Positions 30,405 to 50,138 are shown, counted from the first letter of the stretch. The stretch is DNA of 64,000 nt from Vicinamibacterales bacterium (GCA_963832375.1 CAWHUA010000003.1:206827-270826); one strand, 5' to 3'. Made by a program: numbers and translations. The notes: generated by a model not told the origin, from the letters alone.

Positions 30405-30932
30405 CTAACCTCCCAGCACGACGCCAACCGTAAAGCGTTGAAAGCCGATGCCGCGCGATGTGCGCACCTGGAAGTGGCGCAGGTCGCCTCGCACGCCCAC
30501 GAGGCGCGTGAACTTGAACATGACCCCGCCGCCGGCGCTGTAGCCGAAGTCGTTTTCTGAAATATTGGAGAAGATGCCGCCTTCGTCCGATTTCATCCGG
30601 ATGCGAATCAGGCCGAAACCAAAAATGCCATAGGGCCGCACGTTGGCGATCGGAATCGCCACGAAGATGCTCGGCATCAGCGTGACGATGTCGCCGGTTC
30701 CAACGCCGTTCGGCGTCTCGAAGAAGTTTCTCGTTTGCGAAAACTCGAGCTCCGATCCGATGCCGTGTGCGCCCCCGCCGCCCAGGGCGATGGCCCAGGT
30801 GCTCTTGGTCGAGGGCGCGTCGCCGCCGAACACATTCCCCAGCGACGCGGTAAACATGGCCTGCGCGGCGGCCGTTCCTTCCAGGGCAAGGCAGACAGCT
30901 ATCGCCGCCACCGACAATTTTGCGGTGCGCAA
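30405..30932 (-). CDS. small outer-membrane beta-barrel protein (OmpW/OmpA-barrel-like)
   Basis: Signal peptide MRTAKLSVAAIAVCLALEGTAAAQA; alternating hydrophobic beta-strand pattern; 175 aa. Confidence 0.7.
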   Translation of the reverse strand: MRTAKLSVAAIAVCLALEGTAAAQAMFTASLGNVFGGDAPSTKSTWAIALGGGGAHGIGSELEFSQTRNFFETPNGVGTGDIVTLMPSIFVAIPIANVRPYGIFGFGLIRIRMKSDEGGIFSNISENDFGYSAGGGVMFKFTRLVGVRGDLRHFQVRTSRGIGFQRFTVGVVLGG

Positions 30933-30974: not shown

Positions 30975-31040
30975 ATAGCAGAATTGGCAGATCGAATCGG
31001 CAGATTGGCGGACTGCCGGATTGGGAGATTGCGCAGACCT
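30975..31040. repeat. GGCAGATTG / GGGAGATTG word block (family shared with 37213, 41754 and 49090 spacers)
   Basis: GCAGAATTGGCAGATCGAATCGGCAGATTGGCGGACTGCCGGATTGGGAGATTGCGCAG. Confidence 0.7.
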
Positions 31041-31044
31041 GCGC

Positions 31045-31284
31045 TCAGGCCGAGCCTTCGGTCGCGATCATGTAGTTCATCTGGCCCCACTGTAAGGGAG
31101 GCACGCGGCGGCGGTCGCTCCGGCGCCGGTTGCGGGGCGCGCTGTCCCCGGCCGACTGACGCCGCTCGCCCATGCGACGGTCCCAGATGATCTGCATGCT
31201 GGGATCGGCGGCGAACGTGCGCGTCAGCAGCTCGAACGTGGCGAAATGGCCACGCCGCACGATGACGAGTCTTGGGTCTGCCAC
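31045..31284 (-). CDS. small hypothetical protein with Arg-rich (DRR/ERR) tail
   Basis: 79 aa; ...IIWDRRMGERRQSAGDSAPRNRRRSDRRRVPPLQWGQ. Coding-like GC3. Confidence 0.45.
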   Translation of the reverse strand: MADPRLVIVRRGHFATFELLTRTFAADPSMQIIWDRRMGERRQSAGDSAPRNRRRSDRRRVPPLQWGQMNYMIATEGSA

Positions 31285-31434: not shown

Positions 31435-33538
31435 TTATCGATTCCGCTTCACGGATTTGATGACGTCCTTGACCGCATCCTTCTTCTGCCGCGCGACCTT
31501 CGCTTTGACGATGTCGCCCAGCAGTCCGGCATTGCCCCAGACGATGTTGTCGTCGTCGAGCGCGTTGCCCCAGACGATGTTGTCATCGTCGAGCGAGTTG
31601 CCCCAGACGATGTTGTCGTCATCGATGGAGTTGCCCCAGACGATGTTGTCGTCGTCCAGCAGACTGTTGCCCCACACGATGTTGTTGCCCCACACGATGT
31701 TGTCGTCGTCGAGGCTGTTGCCCCAGACGATGTTGTCATCGTCATCGTTGGAGTTGCCCCACACGATGTTGTTGCCCCAGACAATGTTGTTGCCCCACAC
31801 GATGTTGTCGTCGTCGAGGCTGTTGCCCCAGACGATGTTGTCGTCATCGAGGGAATTGCCCCACACGATGTTGTCGTCATCGTCCAGGCCGTCGCCCCAC
31901 ACGATGTTGAGCGCCCACGAACCCCGCTGCTCTTCGATGACGCCGACGCCTCGTGCGATGAAGTTGCCCCAGAGCATCCGCTGCGCCCATTGGTAGATCT
32001 CGCCGCCAATGGTCGAGCTCGGTTCCACTCCGGCCGTCAACCACCCTTGGCCGACCGCCGCCGCCGGGTTGATCGCCGCGGCGAGCGACAGCGCGCCGGG
32101 GGCGTTGATCGCACCCGCGCCCTGCGTCAGGACGTCGGCCTCAACCGTCCCGTCTACCGCGTCTTTCACCAGGACCGACGAGGTACTGCAGCACCATCTT
32201 CAGCGCGTTCGGCGTGAGGCCGCCGTTGGTCTCGAGCACGAGCGCCGCGAGACCGCTGACGACACCGGCCGCCATGCTGGTGCCCTTCAGGCGCATGTAG
32301 TTGCCCGTGTTGCCCTTTTTCTCCATGGCCGCACGCAAGGTGCTGCCGACGGCCGCGACGGAAAGCAGGTTGTCGCCGGGCGCGGAAATGTCCGGCTTCG
32401 CGAAGCCGTCGTACCACGACGGGCCTCGCGAGCTGTACGCCGCGATGTGATCGTCGGCGCGCGTCACGGTGTCGTACGTCTTCACCGAACCCACGGCGAT
32501 GCCAGACGGCGCGTTGCCGGGCGACGCGATGCCGGCGTAACCCACCTGTCCGGTCTGGGGATTGGTGCCGAAGTTGCCGGCCGACAGCACAACGGTGAGG
32601 CCGACACGCGCGGCGTGCTCGACAGCCTGCACCATCGGATCGGTCGCAGCCGCCTCGAAAATCGGATGTCCCAGGGAAAGATTCAGGATGTTGATGCCAA
32701 GCAGGTCCTTGTTGACGATCGCAAACTCGATCGCGCGAATGACCCCGTCGGCCGATCCCTGCCCCTGGGCGTTCAGCACCTTGAGACCGATCAGGCGGGC
32801 GTTCGGCGCCACCCCGACGTAGGTGCCGGCGGCGAGTCCGGCCACGTGGCTGCCGTGTCCGTATTCGTCACTCGGCGAGGTGACGCGCACATCACCCTGC
32901 GTGAAGTCGTAGAACGCGGTGATTCGCGAACCAAAATCGAGGCCGGCCTGGATGCCCGAATCGATGATCGCGATGCCAACCGACGACGGCTGCCCGCCAT
33001 AGACCATTCCGGTGGTGCCGTACGCCGCGTTGTCGTAGCCGATGTTCTCGTAGCCGAGGTTCGATGACTGCCGTACCGCGAGCGTGGCAAAGAAGTTCGC
33101 CTGCAACTGTTGTGCAGCGAGCGCCTCGTTGAGGCGCGCGGAATCGTTGTCGTCGGCGCTCGGGCCTCCGGGCAGCGTGGTCCACTGCTGGGACGCATCG
33201 TTCACCTGCAGCGGGGTGATCTTGTGGTTGCCCGAAATCGACGCGGTCGCCAGCGATGCCGCGAGGCTGTCGAGATCCTCGCACTTCACTTCCGCGGTGA
33301 TCGCGTCGAGGGCGGGGAATTCGCCCTTGACCTTGCGTCCGCCGTGCGCCAGCGATCGACGCACTGCTTCGCGGTAACCCGGTTTGGTCCTGATAATCAC
33401 CGACTTGGTGCCCACGCATCCGCGCTCGACTGTCTGACGAAGTGACTTGTCGAGCTTTTCGCGACGCGCTTCTGCGGAGACTGGCGCACCGAGCGTGGCG
33501 ACGACCGCGGCGACCGTAAACAACCGAGCTAGTGTCAT
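31435..33538 (-). CDS. secreted subtilisin-like (S8) serine protease with C-terminal NIVWGN repeat region; frame broken by a 1-nt indel near 32180-32186
   Basis: Signal peptide and propeptide-like region, then the catalytic triad contexts AIIDSGI, HGSHVAG and GTSMAAG. ORFs 32141..33538 and 31435..32169 join as ...LKMVLQYSSVLVKDAVDGTVEADVLTQGAGAINA... if one C is removed from TACCTCG. Confidence 0.85.
31531..31908 (-). repeat. 13 tandem copies of an NIVWG(N) motif, with or without SLDDD spacers (18/30/33-nt units)
   Basis: Protein reads NIVWGDGLDDDDNIVWGNSLDDDNIVWGNSLDDDNIVWGNNIVWGNNIVWGNSNDDDDNIVWGN... The DNA shows reiterated GTTGCCCCA(G/C)ACGATGTTGTCGTC units. Confidence 0.9.
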
Positions 33539-34448: not shown

Positions 34449-34524
34449 GGTGAGTGTAGCTCAGTGGTAGAGCACCGGACTGTGGCTCCGGACGTCGCGG
34501 GTTCAATCCCCGTCACTCACCCCA
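34449..34524 (+). tRNA. tRNA-His (anticodon GTG), with encoded G-1 and CCA
   Basis: Manual fold: G-1, acceptor GTGAGTG/CACTCAC, D arm GCTC-AGTGGTA-GAGC, anticodon arm CCGGA-CTGTGGC-TCCGG, T arm GCGGG-TTCAATC-CCCGT, discriminator C, CCA. Confidence 0.9.
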
Positions 34525-36324: not shown

Positions 36325-37212
36325 ATGAGCACACCGCGTATTGGTTGGATTGGCACCGGCGTCATGGGGCAGTCGATGTGCGGCCACCTGATGGCCAAGG
36401 GCTACCCTGCGACGATTTACAGCCGAACGAAGTCGAAAGCACAGGGCCTGCTCGACAAGGGCGCCGCATGGGCCGACACGCCTGGCGGGGTCGCCGGGCA
36501 ATCCGACATCACGTTCACGATCGTCGGGTTGCCGAACGACGTGCGCGAGGTCTACCAGACCAAGGGCGGCATTCTCGATGCGGCACAGCCGGGCAGCATC
36601 ATCGTGGACATGACGACGACCGAACCGAGCCTCGCGCGCGAAATCTACGAAACCGCGAAAGCGAAGCGCGTGTCGGCCATCGATGCGCCGGTATCGGGCG
36701 GCGATGTCGGCGCGAGGAACGCGACCCTCTCGATCATGGTCGGCGGCGACAAGGACGCGGTCGATCGCGTGATGCCGCTCTTCCAGGCGATGGGCAAGAA
36801 CATCGTCTATCAGGGCGGCGCCGGCAACGGCCAGCACACCAAGATGTGCAATCAGCTCGTCCTCGCCGGCACGATCATCGGCGTGTGCGAGAGCCTGTTG
36901 TACGGCTACAAGGCCGGGCTCGATCTCGAGACGATGCTCAGCTCGATTACAAAAGGTGCGGCGCAGTGCTGGATTCTCGACAACCTGGCGCCGAAGATGG
37001 TGAACCGGAATTTCGATCCGGGATTCTTCGTCGAGCACTTCGAGAAGGATCTGGGCATCGCGCTCGACGAGTCGCGGCGGATGGGGATTTCGATGCCGGG
37101 CCTGGCGCTGGTGCGCCAGTTCTACATCGCGCTCAAATCACAGGGCCACGGCCGGCTGGGCTATCACTCGCTGCTGCTCGCACTCGAACAGCTTTCGAAC
37201 GTCAAACGCTAA
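36325..37212 (+). CDS. NAD(P)-dependent 3-hydroxyisobutyrate dehydrogenase / 2-hydroxy-3-oxopropionate reductase family oxidoreductase
   Basis: IGWIGTGVMGQSMCGHL Rossmann motif; DAPVSGG and catalytic-Lys region GAGNGQHTKMCNQ; AAGGAG Shine-Dalgarno upstream of the ATG at 36325. Confidence 0.9.
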   Translation: MSTPRIGWIGTGVMGQSMCGHLMAKGYPATIYSRTKSKAQGLLDKGAAWADTPGGVAGQSDITFTIVGLPNDVREVYQTKGGILDAAQPGSIIVDMTTTEPSLAREIYETAKAKRVSAIDAPVSGGDVGARNATLSIMVGGDKDAVDRVMPLFQAMGKNIVYQGGAGNGQHTKMCNQLVLAGTIIGVCESLLYGYKAGLDLETMLSSITKGAAQCWILDNLAPKMVNRNFDPGFFVEHFEKDLGIALDESRRMGISMPGLALVRQFYIALKSQGHGRLGYHSLLLALEQLSNVKR

Positions 37213-37380
37213 TAAAACTGACGCACCATTGGTAGATGGGAAGATTGGTGGATTGGGAGATTGTTGGCAGATTGAGTGATTGGTAGATGGGCAGAATCGC
37301 CTGAATCTGCGAATCTGCAAATCATTCAATCCCACAACATTCCACCAATCCTCCAATCTGCGAATCCGCCAATGGTGGAT
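37213..37380. terminator. ~150-nt imperfect 'word' palindrome between convergent genes (GATTGG / GGCAGATTG / GGGAGATTG words)
   Basis: Left arm CCATTGGTAGATGGGAAGATTGGTGGATTGGGAGATTGTTGGCAGATTGAG... The right arm ends ...CCACCAATCCTCCAATCTGCGAATCCGCCAATGG. The arms are approximate reverse complements. Confidence 0.55.
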
Positions 37381-37695
37381 TCACCCACCCCTCCTATCCC
37401 CCGCCCTCCGATCGCGGCCGGTGCGGCGCTCGGGACCGTCGTACGGCGCCTGCTGCTTGCGCCGTTCGGCGCTCCGGCGATCGCGCTGGCGCCGTTCGCG
37501 TCCCGCCTGCGCTCCGGCCGTCGCCGAGCGGGCGGCTTCCCGCTGCAGCCTGATCGTGCGCCGGCTGGGATCCAGCACCTCCATCAGTCCCTGCACGAGC
37601 ACGATGGCCTGGGGGCTTTCGACGATTCGTTCCGGAGCTTTCAGGTAGTTGAGGGCGGCCAGGATATTTGACCGCTGCCACGGAGTCAGGTTCAT
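37381..37695 (-). CDS. hypothetical protein with Arg-rich DRR/ERR repeat tail
   Basis: 104 aa; C-terminus GRERRQRDRRSAERRKQQAPYDGPERRTGRDRRAGDRRGG. Confidence 0.4.
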   Translation of the reverse strand: MNLTPWQRSNILAALNYLKAPERIVESPQAIVLVQGLMEVLDPSRRTIRLQREAARSATAGAQAGRERRQRDRRSAERRKQQAPYDGPERRTGRDRRAGDRRGG

Positions 37696-40711: not shown

Positions 40712-40811
40712 CATTCATCCGCAGCAATCGCGACAACTTGCGACAAACGCGCTTTGCGCGGTGCCCTATAGTGGCGCCCTCCCCTTCCTTTTCAACTGGA
40801 GGTCACTTGTG

Positions 40812-41753
40812 ATGAAGACCCTTGTCGTTCTGTCGGCCCTCGTCTTCTTCGTCGCGATGGCCACGGCCCAGGGGCCGCAGCCACCGCCGGTCACTCCGAT
40901 GAAGTTCGCGTACTACCCCGGCACCGATCTCAAGGCGATGTCGAACACGCTGAAAGGTGGCGGCCAGATCAAATACAACCGGATCAATCGTGGCGATCAC
41001 GAGTTCCAGAGCTTCAACTTCAGGCCGAAGAGCACTGCGGCGCCGGAGCTGCACAACAACTTCGCCGACCTCTACTACATCGTCGATGGCGAGGTCATCC
41101 ATCACACCGGCGGCAAGCTCGAAGGCGGCACCGAGCGCAATCCCGGATCGGGTGAGTTCGGCGGCGGCAAGCTCGTGGGCGCAACCACGGTACGGCTCGG
41201 AGCCGGCGATATCGCTTCGTCGGCGGCGGGCGTGCCCCACTGGTGGGAAGTGGAGCCGGGCAAGACCGTGACCTACACGACCGTGAAGGTCCTGAAGCAG
41301 CCGAACCTGTCGAGCGCCTCGATGGCGGGCAACACGCCGATTACGCCGACGAAATTCGTCCACTACAAAGCGTCCGAGCTCCAGGGCTATGTCGCCACCT
41401 TGAAGAAGGGCGAGACGATCAAGTTCCCGGGCGTGCATCGCGGCGATCACCAGTTCCAGAACATCAGCCACCGCGCGAAGAGCTCCGGCGGCGCCGAGCT
41501 GCACAACAACTGGGCCGACCTGTACTTCGTCCTCGACGGCGAGGTCACCATCCGGTACGGCGACAAACTCGAAGGTGGAAAAGAGGGTGCTGACGGCGAG
41601 GTGCGCGGCGGCGAGATCGTGGGCAATGTCACGCGGCAGAAGCTGGTTGCAGGCGACGTCGCCTCAGCCCCCGCCGGCGTGCCGCATTTCTGGGAAGTGG
41701 AAAACGGAAAGTCGGTGACCTACCTGACGGTCAAGCTCGCGAAGAAGCACTGA
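40812..41753 (+). CDS. secreted tandem-cupin (internally duplicated) protein
   Basis: Signal peptide MKTLVVLSALVFFVAMATAQG. Two ~150-aa repeats (TPMKFAYYPG...ELHNNFADLYYIVDGEV...GDIASSAAGVPHWWEV versus TPTKFVHYKA...ELHNNWADLYFVLDGEV...GDVASAPAGVPHFWEV). Confidence 0.7.
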   Translation: MKTLVVLSALVFFVAMATAQGPQPPPVTPMKFAYYPGTDLKAMSNTLKGGGQIKYNRINRGDHEFQSFNFRPKSTAAPELHNNFADLYYIVDGEVIHHTGGKLEGGTERNPGSGEFGGGKLVGATTVRLGAGDIASSAAGVPHWWEVEPGKTVTYTTVKVLKQPNLSSASMAGNTPITPTKFVHYKASELQGYVATLKKGETIKFPGVHRGDHQFQNISHRAKSSGGAELHNNWADLYFVLDGEVTIRYGDKLEGGKEGADGEVRGGEIVGNVTRQKLVAGDVASAPAGVPHFWEVENGKSVTYLTVKLAKKH

Positions 41754-41786
41754 CCGACTTCGCCGGCATTCGCAGATGGGAAGACT

Positions 41787-41830
41787 GGAAGGTTGGCAGA
41801 TTCAGAACATCCTGAATCTGCCAACCTTCC
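41787..41830. terminator. perfect 19-bp stem / 6-nt loop hairpin between convergent genes
   Basis: GGAAGGTTGGCAGATTCAG, loop aacatc, CTGAATCTGCCAACCTTCC, followed by AATTCTGATTTCT. Confidence 0.75.
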
Positions 41831-41841
41831 AATTCTGATTT

Positions 41842-44743
41842 CTAGAAGTCGACGCTGACGCCGAACTTGATCAACGCGCCGCGTTGAATGTTGCCAACCG
41901 CCCCGTAGCTCGTCCCCAGGGTCGTCACGCGGTTGATCACCGTCGCCGAATTGAGCAGGTTGTAGATGTCGAGCCGTGGCTGAATCACCCTGGTGCCCGT
42001 ACGAAACGCCTTTCTGAAGCTCATGTCCAGCTGATTGAGGTCGGGCAACCGCGTGGTGCCGCGCGGCTCGACGATGACGCTTGTGGTGCCCTGGGTCAGG
42101 GCCACCGTGTCGTTCCCGACCGAGACCGTCGTGAGCTCGGGGAAGCCCTTCTGATACTGGAAGGTTCCGCTCGCCTGAATGTCCCACGGCAGATCGTAGA
42201 GACCCGACAGGCGGAATGAGAACGGCGTGTCGTTGCCGACGAGCCCCCGGGCGAACTCTTTCGAGTTCGGGTTGTTGAGATCGTTGTTGCCCACCCAGCC
42301 GTTGGTCTCGCCGATGCTGATGCCGCCGGTCATCATCCAGCCGTTGCTGAACCGCTTGTCGAGGGTGAAGTCCATGCCGTTGTACGTGCTGTCGAAATCG
42401 GACTCGTTCGTCCACACGAAATCCTGCCTGCCGCGCAGCGCCGGATCCTGGTTGTAGACGGTCACCGTCTGCTGGCTGTTCCTTTCGGTGACGACCATCT
42501 TCTGATAGGTGGATTCGGGAACGGCCACGTTGCGCGATCCGAAGTTGTTGACCTTCTGACGCCGCGTGTAGCCCGCGCTGATTACCACATTCGCCGGCAG
42601 CTGGCGCTGAATCTCGGCCGAGTATTCCTGCGCCGCCGGCCAGTCGTAGCCGGGCGCGTAGCGGTTGAACGCCCCCGAACTGAAACCCGTCGACGGTCCG
42701 AGCTCGTTGGCCTGCGGCAGCAGGTCGCCATTGAGGTCGCACCCGACGTTAGCGGGGACCAAAGTCGCACACGCGCTTTGCGCCCGCCACTGACGCGTGT
42801 CGGTGGCGAGGAAGATCGGGTTGATGCGATCGAGCACGCTGCTGCCAACCGGAATGATGTAGCGGTTCGCGGCGAACTTCAGCGCCGTGCGGCCATCGCC
42901 GGCGAGGTCGTAGACCATCGAGAAGCGCGGGCTGACGCTCTTCCAGTCGGGCACGCCCGACATCTTGTCGTAGCACCGTGCGTCGATGAACGGCGTGGCA
43001 TCCTGGCACATGGCGCGCTGCCATCCGTAATTCGTGTCGAGGCGGACGCCGCCATTGATCGTCAGCTTTCGACCGGGACGCCACTTGTCCTGGATGTACA
43101 AGCCCTGTTGAATGTTCTCGGGAATCGAACGCGCCGGTGTGTTGTAGACGTTCGCCGAGTCAGGGACGCCGGAGCGATATACCGCTCGCATGCCGGACGA
43201 GGAGAAGTAGAGCACCTCGTTCCACGCATAGTCGAACTGGTACCCCGCCTTGATGTCGTGCTGCGTCGTGAAGTAGCTGACGCTGCCCTGCATGAAGACA
43301 CGCGTGTTCGGAAGATCGCGGTAGGTCGGCAGGACTCGCAGCGCGGTATTGCTGACGGCATCGAAACCTGCGATCAGGCCGTCAAAGCAGCCCTCCCTGT
43401 CAACGGACGCCTTGCAGTTGGCCGAGTCCCCCTCTATCGGCCACGGCTGGTAGTCGTCCACGCGATTGACGCTGCCCGAGACGTCGTACACCATGCGGGC
43501 CGAACGCGTCGACGTCCACTTCACCTGGTGCAGCTGCGGATACTTCGTGTTCGCGGTCGTCGCACCGGTCTCCGAGAAGGCGGCGCCGCTGACGCGGTGG
43601 CCGTTCTTCTTGAACTGGAGAATGTAGAAGTGCGACAGCTGGCTGTTGGAATTGACCTGCCACGACAGCTTGTTCGAGAAGTTCCACAGCATGTTGTCGT
43701 CGGGCACCGAGCTGCCGTCAGGGTTGTAGCTCCCGACCAGATACTGAAGGATCTGCGAGTGGTGGAACGACGTCGACCACCAGAGCTTGTCGCGCTTGAT
43801 AGGCCCCGCCAGCCACGCGCCGTAGTCAATCAGGTAGCGGATGTCGGCCGTCGGCTTCAAGTCGGGTCTCGCCGCCTTGACCGACGCGGGGACGTTGCGC
43901 AGCAACTGCGCCGCGAGCGCATCGTCGACGTTGTTGAATCCGAGCCCGGCGTTCGTGCCGTTGAACACCACGCCGCCGTGGAACTGGTTGGTGCCGGTGC
44001 GGCTGATCATGTTGAACACGAGACCGACCGGTCGATGCCTCGGCCGGCGAGTTGCCCGCCCGGAAGTTCGCTTCTTCGAAGGCGTACGGATCGAGGTAGA
44101 ACGTGGCGATGCTGCCGCTGCTCTGCGTGCTCGACACGTTCATGCCGTCGATGTAATAGCCGTTCTCGTTGCTCGTCCCGTGAACGGTGATGCCCGACTG
44201 CTGGAACGATTCCGATCCGCCCACGTCCACCTTGCTGGCCACGACGCTGGGGATGACGCGCGTGATCGACCACACATCAATGCGGTTCGGCAGCGCCTGC
44301 AGCGTCTCCTGGCTCAGCACGGTCTGCTTGAGCGCCGATGTCGTATCGAGCAGCGGCGACTCGCCCGACACGACCACCCCCTCTTCCAACTGTCCAATCG
44401 GCAGGCTCAAATCGGCACGGGCGGTGGCGTCGGCATTCACCACGAGGTTGCGCTGCTCGACGGTGCGGAACCCCTGCATCTGGGCCCGCACGTGATAGGT
44501 GCCCGGGACCAGGCGGATGAACTGATAGTTACCCCGTCCATCGCTCGTGGTCTCCTGGCTGCCACCCAGGGTGCCTCCCTGAGCGCTTGAAAGCGTGAGC
44601 GTCACGCCGGGTAGTACAGCCCCCGACGAGTCTGTAACGGTCCCGCCGATCGCGCCCACGCCCTGCGCCCAGGCAGGACCGGCCAGGATCAGGATTACCG
44701 CAGCGACAACTAGCCCGCTCGTCAGGATGCGTCTGTGTGACAT
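41842..44743 (-). CDS. TonB-dependent receptor-like protein with carboxypeptidase-regulatory-like N-domain; frame broken by a 1-nt indel near 44024-44033
   Basis: MSHRRILTSGLVVAAVILILAGPAWAQG signal (GGAAGGAGAG upstream); GTVTDSSGAVLPGVTLTL...GTYHVRA. The two ORFs join as ...NSPAEASTGGLVFNMISRTGTNQFHGG... Ends ...KFGVSVDF. Confidence 0.8.
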
Positions 44744-48396: not shown

Positions 48397-49089
48397 ATGG
48401 TGTCCGAGCGCATCCTCATCGTCGAAGACGACCCCACACTCCGGCGCGTGCTGCGCGACAACCTGATCTTCGAGGGCTACCGGGTCGAGGCGGTGTCCGA
48501 CGGACAATCGGCGATCAGCTACGTGCGGGCGTCGGCGCCCGATCTCGTGGTGCTCGACCTGACGCTGCCGGATTTCGACGGTCTCGATCTGTGTCCGGTG
48601 CTGCGGCAATCGGGGAAGGTCCCCATCATCATTCTGTCGGCGCGCGGCCAGAAGGCGGACAAGCTGAAGGGGCTCAAGCTGGGCGCCGATGACTACATCA
48701 CCAAGCCCTTCGATCTCCAGGAGCTGTTGGCCCGCATCAACGCCGTGCTGCGACGCTCGCATCCCGCGCTCGAGCGGCTCCTGATCGGCAAGCTCGTCAT
48801 CGACTTCCGGTCGCAGCGCGCCAGTTGCGATCAGACGCCGGTGCACCTGACGCACCGCGAGTTCGAGCTGCTGCGCTATCTCGCGGAGCGCCGCGAGAAG
48901 GTGGTCCACCGCGAGGAGCTGTTGAGGGAAGTCTGGGGCTACGTCGACACGAACGTCACGACGCGCTCGGTCGATCACGCCATCGTGCGGTTGCGGAAGA
49001 AGATCGAGCCGGACCCGCACCATCCGGAGTTCATCCGGACGGTGCACGGGGATGGGTACTGTCTAAGCGCCACCCAGGTACAAGGCTAG
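48397..49089 (+). CDS. OmpR-family response regulator
   Basis: Receiver domain (ILIVEDD...VVLDLTLPDFDG...KPF) plus winged-helix output (LTHREFELLRYL...FIRTVHGDGY). Confidence 0.95.
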   Translation: MVSERILIVEDDPTLRRVLRDNLIFEGYRVEAVSDGQSAISYVRASAPDLVVLDLTLPDFDGLDLCPVLRQSGKVPIIILSARGQKADKLKGLKLGADDYITKPFDLQELLARINAVLRRSHPALERLLIGKLVIDFRSQRASCDQTPVHLTHREFELLRYLAERREKVVHREELLREVWGYVDTNVTTRSVDHAIVRLRKKIEPDPHHPEFIRTVHGDGYCLSATQVQG

Positions 49090-49193
49090 CGAACTGACGC
49101 ACTATTCGCAGATTGGAGATTGGGAGATTGGCAGATTACGGAACCCGTAATCTCACAATCTACCAATCTGCCAATCTACCAATGGTGCGAAGC
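49090..49193. terminator. long imperfect 'word' hairpin between convergent genes (GGAGATTGGGAGATTGGCAGATT words)
   Basis: Apex GATTACGG, loop aac, CCGTAATC. The flanks CGCAGATTGGAGATTGGGAGATTGGCA / CACAATCTACCAATCTGCCAATCTACCAATGG pair imperfectly. Confidence 0.6.
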
Positions 49194-50138
49194 TTATTGA
49201 GGTTGCTCCAATAACGACGTGAACTGATAGCCGCTGATCGCCAGCCGGCACGACGGACCCGGGCCGGCAAATCGCGTCGCGTGCCACGTCGACGGCGGCG
49301 CGTAGACGACGTCCCCTTCGTTCGACGTGAAATCGCCCACCGTCTCGATGTTGTGGCGGATCTGACCCTTCAGAATGACCCACCACTCGGCGGTCCCGAC
49401 GTGGAAGTGCCCTTTGTCGTTGGCGTCGTAGGGCGGCAGGTTCTTCTCGTAACCCCAGATCGCCTGTGCCCACATGTGATCGTCCTGCACCACGTTCTGG
49501 CCGGCGAACTTCGGATCTTTCTCGGCGTCCCAGAGATTGAAGTGCGGCTTGTTGTTGCCCGTGTACGGTGCGGGCGTCGTGTTGATGCCGATCTTCATCA
49601 TCGTGTGGCCCGGCGTCTGCGGCGGCCGGGGATCGGACACCGGCACCAGCGTCTTGAAATTCGCCTGGTTCGCGTCGACCCAGAGCGCCGGCGCGGTGCC
49701 GACGACCTCGGCGGAATACATCGTCTTTTTCGGGATGTTCACGACCGAGCCCCGCTTGGTCAGAATCGGCTCCGGTTGTCCTTCGAGCGTGATGCGCAGT
49801 TCCCCTTCGACCACGACGATGAACTCGCGCGTGTCGGGTCGCATGCGCGGCGTGATCTTCGTGCCGGGTTGCCCCTGGTTGTACGTCGCATGGAAGTTTG
49901 GATCGTCGACGACGACCTCGCTCCAGTTCGCCTGGCCCTTGTGACGCGCCTTCAGATCCGCAAGCTTGATGTGCGCTTTGTTCTTGCCGTACTGGCCGCC
50001 CTTGTCCTTGTTGACCCACCACTGGCGAGGCGGCGACTGGCCGCGGCCTGCTCCGGTTCCCTGCTGGGTATGAACGGCGGACGTCAAACCGAACGAGAGC
50101 GCAACCGTAACCACCATTGCCACGTGCAGACGTCTCAT
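49194..50138 (-). CDS. secreted bicupin-like protein
   Basis: Signal MRRLHVAMVVTVALSFGLTSAVHTQQ. Two cupin-like halves (REFIVVVEGELRITLEGQ...GSVVNIP and HFHVGTAEWWVILKGQIRHNIE...GDVVYAPPSTWH). Confidence 0.65.
   Translation of the reverse strand: MRRLHVAMVVTVALSFGLTSAVHTQQGTGAGRGQSPPRQWWVNKDKGGQYGKNKAHIKLADLKARHKGQANWSEVVVDDPNFHATYNQGQPGTKITPRMRPDTREFIVVVEGELRITLEGQPEPILTKRGSVVNIPKKTMYSAEVVGTAPALWVDANQANFKTLVPVSDPRPPQTPGHTMMKIGINTTPAPYTGNNKPHFNLWDAEKDPKFAGQNVVQDDHMWAQAIWGYEKNLPPYDANDKGHFHVGTAEWWVILKGQIRHNIETVGDFTSNEGDVVYAPPSTWHATRFAGPGPSCRLAISGYQFTSLLEQPQ

Follow-up and report, generated by a model that had tools for sequence, protein, structure and literature searches.

Octamer-repeat hairpins past stop codons in a soil Vicinamibacterales genome: probable gene-less relatives of a cassette that resembles 23S rRNA intervening sequences

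The DNA described here is a window of 64,000 nucleotides (nt; G000:C3:206827-270826) from the metagenome-assembled genome (MAG) of a soil Vicinamibacterales bacterium (Acidobacteriota), hereafter G000, which comprises 5.83 Mb in 9 contigs with 64% G+C and is 93% complete. Four spacers of this window, 30979-31040, 37213-37380, 41754-41841 and 49090-49193, are built of the same short repeats, and three of them form long hairpins at gene 3' ends. An initial annotation had noted a vocabulary of words common to these spacers, and a sequence check found each word where it had been reported: GGGAGATTG was present in 30979-31040, 37213-37380 and 49090-49193, GGCAGATT in all four spacers and AGATGGGAAGA(T/C)TGG in 37213-37380 and 41754-41841, and two spacers open with AACTGACGCAC, 3 and 2 nt past a stop codon. 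What had been overlooked is that a single tandem unit of 8 nt, NAGATT(G/C)G, yields all the quoted words as overlapping fragments. The arms that this unit builds are listed in Table 1.

The spacers 37213-37380, 41754-41841 and 49090-49193 pair with themselves, as had been proposed, in stems ranging from a perfect 20 bp to an imperfect ~70 bp, and for each of them none of 200 shuffles was as stable. The predicted fold reached -85.9 kcal/mol (z -9.2) for the imperfect ~70-bp stem of 37213-37380, -44.1 kcal/mol (z -7.3) for the perfect 20-bp stem of 41754-41841 and -53.5 kcal/mol (z -9.9) for 49090-49193. The fourth spacer, folded as 30976-31045, did no better than its shuffles (-23.1 kcal/mol, z -1.3). 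The earlier placement of the family at four gene ends is correct for the three hairpin spacers and fails for 30979-31040, which is located between two minus-strand genes; the supposed stop at 30976-30978 is the end of a spurious open reading frame (ORF) overlapping a minus-strand outer-membrane beta-barrel gene (30405-30932, PF13505). The genes beside the three hairpins are unrelated housekeeping genes, namely a 3-hydroxyisobutyrate-dehydrogenase-like gene, two bicupins, an outer-membrane barrel and an OmpR-type regulator, and the G+C content of the arms is 45-51% versus 64% for the genome. A search of Rfam over 30-50 kb yielded no more than a tRNA and, on the 41.8-kb hairpin, three microRNA look-alikes below threshold, which were dismissed as chance matches to a long stem; the repeat is none of the families described in Rfam.

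Table 1. Coordinates of the repeat arms and leaders in the window, and of the RAYT-type genes elsewhere in G000 (contig given).
Feature	Position	Strand	Description
Single degenerate arm	30981..31032	+	GAATTGG leader, AGATT/GGATT units, small internal hairpin; outer end points to the 5' end of minus-strand outer-membrane protein gene 30405-30932
Outer leader AACTGACGCAC	37216..37226	+	3 nt past TAA of 3-hydroxyisobutyrate-dehydrogenase-like gene 36325-37212
Long hairpin, left arm	37227..37299	+	~9 units of NAGATTGG type, including irregular block GAGATTGTTGGCAGATT
Long hairpin, right arm	37300..37374	+	inverted units CCAATCTN; stops 6 nt short of the stop codon (TCA) of minus-strand ORF 37381-37695
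Left arm	41767..41805	+	CATTCG leader and 4 units; 13 nt past TGA of bicupin gene 40761-41753
Right arm	41812..41835	+	perfect 20-bp stem with 41786-41805, then ATTCTGATTT; stops 6 nt short of the stop codon of minus-strand outer-membrane beta-barrel gene 41842-44019
Outer leader AACTGACGCAC	49092..49102	+	2 nt past TAG of OmpR-type response-regulator gene 48397-49089
Left arm	49103..49140	+	TATTCG leader, 4 units, inner end AGATTACG
Right arm	49146..49189	+	inner end CGTAATCT, 4 inverted units, then CCAATGGTGCG; stops 4 nt short of the stop codon of minus-strand bicupin gene 49194-50123
RAYT-type Y1 transposase gene	C9:78269-78595		own REP array beside it
RAYT-type Y1 transposase gene	C5:25370-25690		own REP array beside it
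RAYT-type Y1 transposase gene	C2:513974-514300		own REP array beside it

Tandem arrays of AGATTGG plus one variable base are dispersed throughout G000, in which 199 arrays with at least two units and 110 with at least three were counted. The motif reversed without complementation, used as the control for unit searches, gave 5 arrays, all of two units and none of three or more. In the same way, the 21-nt pattern AGATTSGNAGATTSGNAGATT had 132 matches in the genome and its reversed control 0. These counts and controls, together with the polarity of the arms, bear out the earlier view of a dispersed and related family as opposed to random low complexity. The genome-wide enrichment that had been expected of the single words is only 1-4.5-fold, and it is their tandem arrangement that holds the signal.

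The anatomy of an arm is constant. Its outer end reads G(A/C)ATT(G/C)G, sometimes with AACTGACGCAC ahead, its body consists of 2-7 tandem units NAGATT(G/C)G and its inner end reads NAGATTA(C/A)G, both ends being conserved; two arms set head to head give a long hairpin. Mapping against stop codons revealed the strong bias to gene 3' ends that had been anticipated. Among 155 loci, 47 are in convergent and 5 in divergent spacers, and where the neighbouring genes run in tandem, 40 single arms share the direction of the genes and 12 oppose it. About 32 loci are head-to-head hairpins and the remainder single arms (by another estimate, about half of the loci are single). When the 94 clean arms with at least three units are considered, the outer end is turned toward the stop codon of a gene in the same orientation in 68, at a distance of 20 nt or less in 58 of these, and toward a gene start in 16. 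The stop TGA even overlaps the leader (tGAATTSG) in about ten of the stop-facing arms.

Between the two arms of a hairpin, the fixed unit positions agree at 90%, whereas the variable base N pairs at 9 of 38 aligned positions versus a chance expectation of 36%. Upkeep of the hairpins by compensatory change was rejected because the variable base pairs less often than chance. The 8-mer ACTGACGC precedes AGATTGG arms at 8 loci, and (A)ACTGACGC is also found ahead of arms of other unit families (GGTTCC twice, GGTTCTG, GAAAGT and AACTGA) as well as in the "empty" 11-nt spacer of one relative (L001). A derivation of the leader AACTGACGCAC from a remnant of the GACGCAGAG family is unsupported, since arms of that family begin with (T/C)(T/C)GACGCAGAG. 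An AGATTGG arm was moreover seen at G000 C2:417139-417169, a few hundred bases past the end of the rRNA operon and beside a 5S-rRNA-like sequence. The 21-nt pattern was found in 17 of the 24 genomes of the genus that were searched, with 6-122 matches, and had 0 matches in 16 other genera of the order, the reversed control giving 0 everywhere; by this survey the repeat family appears specific to one genus.

The same arms also surround a gene. At C3:479515-480014 of G000, inverted AGATTGG arms enclose a truncated four-helix-bundle ORF that matches TIGR02436 with an E value of 6e-9 over profile positions 3-62 of 109. PF05635/TIGR02436 is the protein family of the ORF-bearing 23S rRNA intervening sequences (IVS) and of Avd, a protein of diversity-generating retroelements (DGR). 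The cassettes measure ~500-650 bp and hold one gene only. In relatives, intact cassette genes encode 128-143 amino acids (aa), are 76-97% identical to the G000 copy and lie at several different loci. The copy at the same locus in G014 (143 aa, ORF as called) is 97% identical, and at other loci the cognate gene is 92% identical in G024 and 76-82% identical in G003, G011, G007, G018, G010 and G001. These genes lie between AGATT(G/C)G arms, except for the G018 copy, which has no right arm, and the left arm begins 0-20 nt past a co-oriented host stop codon.

When cassettes are ordered by protein identity to the G000 copy, the flanking unit is AGATTGGN at 76% or more, AGATTG mixed with AGATAG, in an irregular arm of greater length, at 70-75%, a remaining GATTG core at about 50%, and an unrelated unit (AAAAGT, GTGAACT) below 40%. 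Cassette protein and arm unit diverge together. The hairpin 37227-37374 of the window aligns colinearly with ~70-nt irregular cassette arms of relatives, with a mean column identity of 73% and the block TGTTGGCAGATT in common, and it therefore matches a cassette arm in unit order, beyond unit content. A cognate protein of at least 73% identity is present in 14 of 17 array-bearing genomes, which are kin and do not amount to a statistical test. An invasion of pre-existing random hairpins by cassette genes is disfavoured because similar proteins at different loci carry the same arms; nested or replacing insertions do occur.

The AGATTGG family is one of many in this genome. All 11 PF05635 matches and all five PF13366/TIGR04256 GxxExxY loci of G000 adjoin tandem arrays, each with its own unit, the GxxExxY PD-(D/E)XK protein being the other type of cassette gene besides the four-helix bundle. 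The units include GGTGGTA, CAGCTRT, GGGATTA, GGTTCTG, GGTTCC, GGGCRAT, ATGGCAG, GGTTCGTN, GACGCAAA, GCGCAGAG and CAGAAGAT. Judged by eye, and with the truncated copy counted, inverted arrays flank 15 of 17 cassette genes at distances of up to 330 nt; a strict automated test for such arrays was passed by 8 of the 17 and, among the 4,945 other genes called, by about 20. In G000 the families running in parallel number no fewer than 15, and a separate 6-9-nt unit and cassette gene belong to each of them. For 13 of the 17 cassettes the unit is that of a dispersed family of 18-148 arrays.

Tandem arrays of period 6-9 were located by Tandem Repeats Finder (TRF), which returned 1,015 intergenic arrays in G000, periods 7 and 8 being dominant. 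An exact match to a cassette unit was observed in 39% of them and a match within one mismatch in 67.5%, against 2% and 20% with permuted units as a control. The density of arrays of all families falls from convergent spacers (2.22 per kb) through tandem (0.97) to divergent ones (0.30), and 32% of convergent spacers hold an array. Similar proteins go with similar units: GGTTCTG, GGTTCCG and GGTTCGT accompany three alike proteins, and ATGGCAG and ATTGGCAG two others. Hairpins of AAGAGATCAGGAG have the unit that also builds the arms around the GxxExxY gene located at C8:1167936. For the AACTGAN (about 90 intergenic arrays) and GAAAGTA/AAAAAGT families no cassette gene was found in the 93%-complete G000. 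A four-helix-bundle gene between AAAAGT arrays was seen at a locus of a relative (L038).

Such an arrangement was also found beyond the phylum. In Gemmatirosa, a four-helix-bundle gene lies between inverted 7-8-nt arrays (GGGCAGGA). Three loci on cyanobacterial plasmids also hold such a gene: on a Nostoc edaphicum plasmid the gene stands in GGGAGTA arrays on the opposite strand between two ribonucleotide-reductase genes, on a Picosynechococcus plasmid in GGAGATAA arrays between cas10 and cmr3, and on a Pseudanabaena plasmid with tandem-repeat arms between cas6 and cas4.

Orthologous spacers were compared in 15 relatives and three further genomes. This strain comparison, which the initial annotation had called for, revealed orthologous sites that were empty, cassette-bearing or occupied by the hairpin of another family. 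At the 37213 site, L001 has an 11-nt spacer, taaAAAACTGACGCtca, between flanks that are 97-98% identical, and the site is filled in L002, L003, L006 and L007. The 49090 site holds one of five unit families or none across 12 relatives: AGATTGG in the window, in L003 and as one arm in L006, ATGGCAG in L002 and L004, GACGCAGAG in L001, AGATCT in L011 and L014, a GGGGAGA-type unit in L007, and 10-20 nt only in L005 and L013. In the same way, the 41754 site carries AGATTGG, ATGGCAG or GGTGGTT hairpins depending on the relative. Elsewhere, the site C3:483.1k is occupied by a hairpin of GGTGGTA, by one of AGATTSG, or by an AGATTSG hairpin joined to a GGTAGCT arm, and at C3:493.86k GACGCAGAG is exchanged for an AGATTSG hairpin. 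The spacer between an MGMT-like gene and an extracytoplasmic function (ECF) sigma factor gene contains a full cassette in G024 and G008, a 5'-deleted cassette on contig C21 of G014, and a gene-less AGATTGG hairpin in G000 and on contig C48 of G014. Moreover, the spacer 30979-31040 has one unit in the window versus 3-4 in L001-L003, and the left arm of the cassette varies between 3 and 4 units among genomes. Arms are therefore gained, lost, resized and replaced at a flank divergence of 2-7%, and new hairpins would tend to land where one already sits.

The two G014 contigs (C21 and C48; L055 and L058) are copies of the same 12-kb region, 93-94% identical to G000, and differ in the hairpin families of their spacers; the G014 MAG is probably a mix of two strains. 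At the 41754 site, the right arm is 32-49 nt longer in L001-L003, and the perfect 20-bp stem of 41754-41841 looks secondary. The window form fits a deletion between two CTGCCAA direct repeats and then left-arm changes from TAGATT to AAGGTT by which the perfect stem would have been restored; in comparison with L001 this looks like arm-to-arm templated correction.

The labels given to the family earlier, terminator, REP or MITE-like, each fit only in part, the last being the closest. As regards terminators, only 41786-41831 passes a scan for the canonical form, and the regional matches amount to 13 versus 11.5 in shuffles, which led to the rejection of this candidate: the hairpins are not a canonical terminator family, and a terminator role is unproven. 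With repetitive extragenic palindromic (REP) elements, bacterial interspersed mosaic elements (BIME) and REP doublets forming hairpins (REPIN), the family has in common dispersed extragenic palindromes at gene ends, and many gene-less copies per gene-bearing copy with the same flanking repeats; REP elements are known to stabilise the mRNA upstream. It differs from them in that its arms are tandem octamers and lack the imperfect palindrome of 20-40 nt, headed by GTAG or CGTC, that marks those elements, and in that its partner gene encodes a four-helix bundle and not a Y1 transposase. REP copies themselves were observed inside AGATTGG hairpin loops (G000 C2:342293) and in orthologous spacers of L006. 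Bacterial MITEs (miniature inverted-repeat transposable elements), such as Correia and the enterobacterial repetitive intergenic consensus (ERIC), are likewise short, non-coding and intergenic, with inverted ends and presence or absence between strains. Terminal inverted repeats of the MITE kind are present here as head-to-head arms with GAATTSG...CSAATTC or CATTGG...CCAATG ends. Unlike MITEs, however, the copies are not near-identical, since unit count, variant bases and loop differ per locus, and the gene-bearing partner encodes a TIGR02436 protein, with no transposase-bearing parent.

The ORF-bearing 23S rRNA IVS of Leptospira and of Coxiella burnetii (Warrier et al. 2016, PMC4990558) have an S23p/PF05635 gene and inverted ends; a selfish nature, or mobility in the past, has been proposed for them. 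The cassettes described here, as at G000 C3:479515-480014 and at L017-L025, similarly have a PF05635 gene in the loop of an inverted-repeat stem. The four window copies, on the contrary, are gene-less, and the loci lie between protein-coding genes past stop codons and not in helix 25 or 45 of the 23S rRNA. A true 23S rRNA IVS, carried by a plasmid of Azospirillum lipoferum, has arms that are tandem repeats of a longer unit of about 14 nt. The 23S gene of G000 itself (C2:417675-420654, minus strand) contains no large insert, with 2,980 nt versus a 2,925-position model. A DGR-like retrohoming through the Avd-like protein was also considered and rejected, no reverse transcriptase (PF00078) being matched in the 93%-complete G000.

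Intergenic arrays of short units are known from other bacteria. Those with the heptamer GGGAATC in Xanthomonas and GGGGAYT in Nostoc, many being set in convergent inverted pairs, were read as G-quadruplex formers, with no gene partner named (Rehm et al. 2015, PMC4692102). They resemble the present family as dispersed intergenic 7-8-nt tandem units in head-to-head stem-loop pairs that are rare between divergent genes, and their length varies between species. They differ in their G-tracts, the unit NAGATTSG having at most GG(G), whereas the arms here have defined ends, a strict polarity to the upstream stop codon and a cognate cassette gene. In marine Beggiatoaceae, direct repeats of TAACTGA make up plentiful intergenic heptamer arrays whose role is unexplained (MacGregor 2015, PMC4679880). 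The AACTGAN heptamer family of G000 recalls them; the Beggiatoaceae repeats are mostly direct and upstream of genes, whereas arrays here lie past stop codons and are often inverted. The Geobacter metallireducens genome paper (PMC2700814) mentions abundant multicopy intergenic sequences. Reports of comparable arrays in Xanthomonas, cyanobacteria and Geobacter have come without an explanation. Among the papers searched, none other than those on IVS was found to tie PF05635/S23p genes to tandem-repeat arms.

The explanation that we favour is that the window hairpins, themselves gene-less, are probably non-autonomous or decayed relatives of an IVS-like selfish cassette. Such elements would be selfish DNA for which the stretch immediately past a stop codon is the place of landing or of survival, in many cases with another hairpin already in the spacer, and it is proposed that they persist at gene 3' ends because insertions there would do little harm. 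The cassette protein may help in the spread or upkeep of the elements. Once transcribed as part of 3' untranslated regions (UTRs), the long stems would as a side effect block exonucleases or be substrates of RNase III, as the stems of IVS are (PMC4990558). A more specific proposal, that each unit family is spread or maintained by its own four-helix-bundle or GxxExxY nuclease-fold protein recognising its 7-9-nt unit, is conceivable and still rather doubtful.

Host selection offers another account, in which the hairpins are 3'-end structures, bidirectional terminators or REP-like mRNA stabilisers, whose sequence is free to turn over. The strong 3'-end bias expressed in the decreasing array density from convergent to divergent spacers, the very stable stems and the T-rich tail of the 41786-41831 stem would suit this account, as would the finding that nearly every relative has some hairpin at 41754 and 49090, of differing families, which looks like functional replacement. 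It is nevertheless unlikely, given that a T tail occurs at only one of four window loci, that about half of the loci are single arms, which lack a partner and cannot fold, that the pairing of the variable positions reveals no compensatory maintenance, that empty orthologous spacers of 7-20 nt separate the same convergent genes and that the same arms around a gene family in many phyla are left unaccounted for. It seems quite improbable, too, that the arrays are DNA or 3' UTR RNA sites through which each four-helix-bundle protein, reading its own unit, governs a regulon that includes its own gene. The fact that each cassette gene has a single unit and each unit many dispersed arrays, the related units of related proteins and the orientation of the arms with the upstream transcript are in line with such a regulon, and the protein family includes Avd, a nucleic-acid-binding pentamer; yet the flanking genes are unrelated in function, the sites are gained, lost and swapped between strains that are 93-98% identical, and the arrays are still present where the cognate gene is broken (G000) or was not found (G005). 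A homopentamer structure of the family, solved for the S23p protein of Xanthomonas campestris, is cited in PMC4990558.

Growth of ordinary simple-sequence repeats in place by replication slippage, with neither mobility nor a link to a gene, would explain why unit number varies at the same site between close relatives (30979-31040 and the cassette left arm) and why periods 7 and 8 dominate outside genes. It is very unlikely for a family with more than 90 loci that have a common unit and common outer and inner arm ends, with a unit confined to one genus, with whole hairpins of one family replaced by those of another at the same site and with arrays that share units with cassette arms far beyond chance. 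Finally, mobilisation as REP/REPIN elements by a REP-associated tyrosine transposase (RAYT, the IS200/IS605-type Y1 transposase) would agree with the extragenic, palindromic and dispersed nature of the elements and with the four PF01797 (Y1_Tnp) matches in G000. Three of these four are RAYT genes flanked by their own classic REPs, for instance GTAGTGTCCGGCTTCAGCCGGAC and CGTAGGCCGGGTCTTGCCTTGTAGACCCGGC, no AGATTGG arms were found beside any RAYT gene and the arms have no GTAG or CGTC head, which leaves this explanation scarcely credible.

Several observations weigh against the selfish-cassette explanation. The cassette gene of G000 is the only cognate gene in the genome and has an in-frame deletion of ~50 aa, and in the 100%-complete G005 the 21-nt pattern has 27 matches and the cognate gene was not found; the arms thus outlive the gene. 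No recombinase was found, the cassette protein being a four-helix bundle, and joint descent of gene and arms would explain their joint divergence without any binding, so that the role of the protein is conjecture. No target-site duplication or excision junction was seen: none of the former was visible at 32 hairpins, and the one pair of filled and empty sites (the window versus taaAAAACTGACGCtca in L001) reveals no clean duplication, the empty form being possibly a deletion remnant. Moreover, no two of the 32 hairpins of G000 share a loop or a pattern of N, so that nothing points to whole elements having been copied and pasted in recent times; the idea that complete gene-less copies transposed recently was rejected on this ground. 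The MGMT-like/sigma site has canonical arms in its gene-less hairpin and a variant arm type in its cassettes, and because these types differ the change there is a replacement and not a simple deletion. In addition, the relatives are few and kin and do not count as independent samples, and the gene calls come from a simple codon-bias caller (4,945 genes) that is crude enough for positions relative to gene starts to be rough.

If the more specific proposal, of one recognising protein per unit family, is true, it would define a new class of mobile element, made of one small gene between tandem-unit arms and of many gene-less satellites, which land just past stop codons and overwrite resident hairpins. 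It would also provide a joint explanation for PF05635, for 23S rRNA intervening sequences and for the heptamer and octamer arrays of Xanthomonas, cyanobacteria and Acidobacteria. What is added here is the unit-by-unit tie of cassettes to dispersed gene-less arrays within one genome, along with the polarity of the arms and their anchoring to stop codons, the non-complementary variable base and the replacement of one family by another at a site. About 1,000 short 7-9-nt arrays fill a large share of the spacers of G000, a third of the convergent ones being occupied, and these arrays as well as the orphan PF05635 family gain a concrete and testable hypothesis. The swift swap of hairpin families at one site bears on the evolution of 3' untranslated regions, and as a warning for annotation, hairpins of such arms should not be called terminators by default.

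Two further features were recorded in the window. A tRNA gene lies at 34450-34521 (Rfam RF00005, 68 bits). On the minus strand, 31435-32169 is a 244-aa ORF that consists mostly of the repeat (N/S)(L/I)DDDNIVWGN, and the opposite strand is likewise open.

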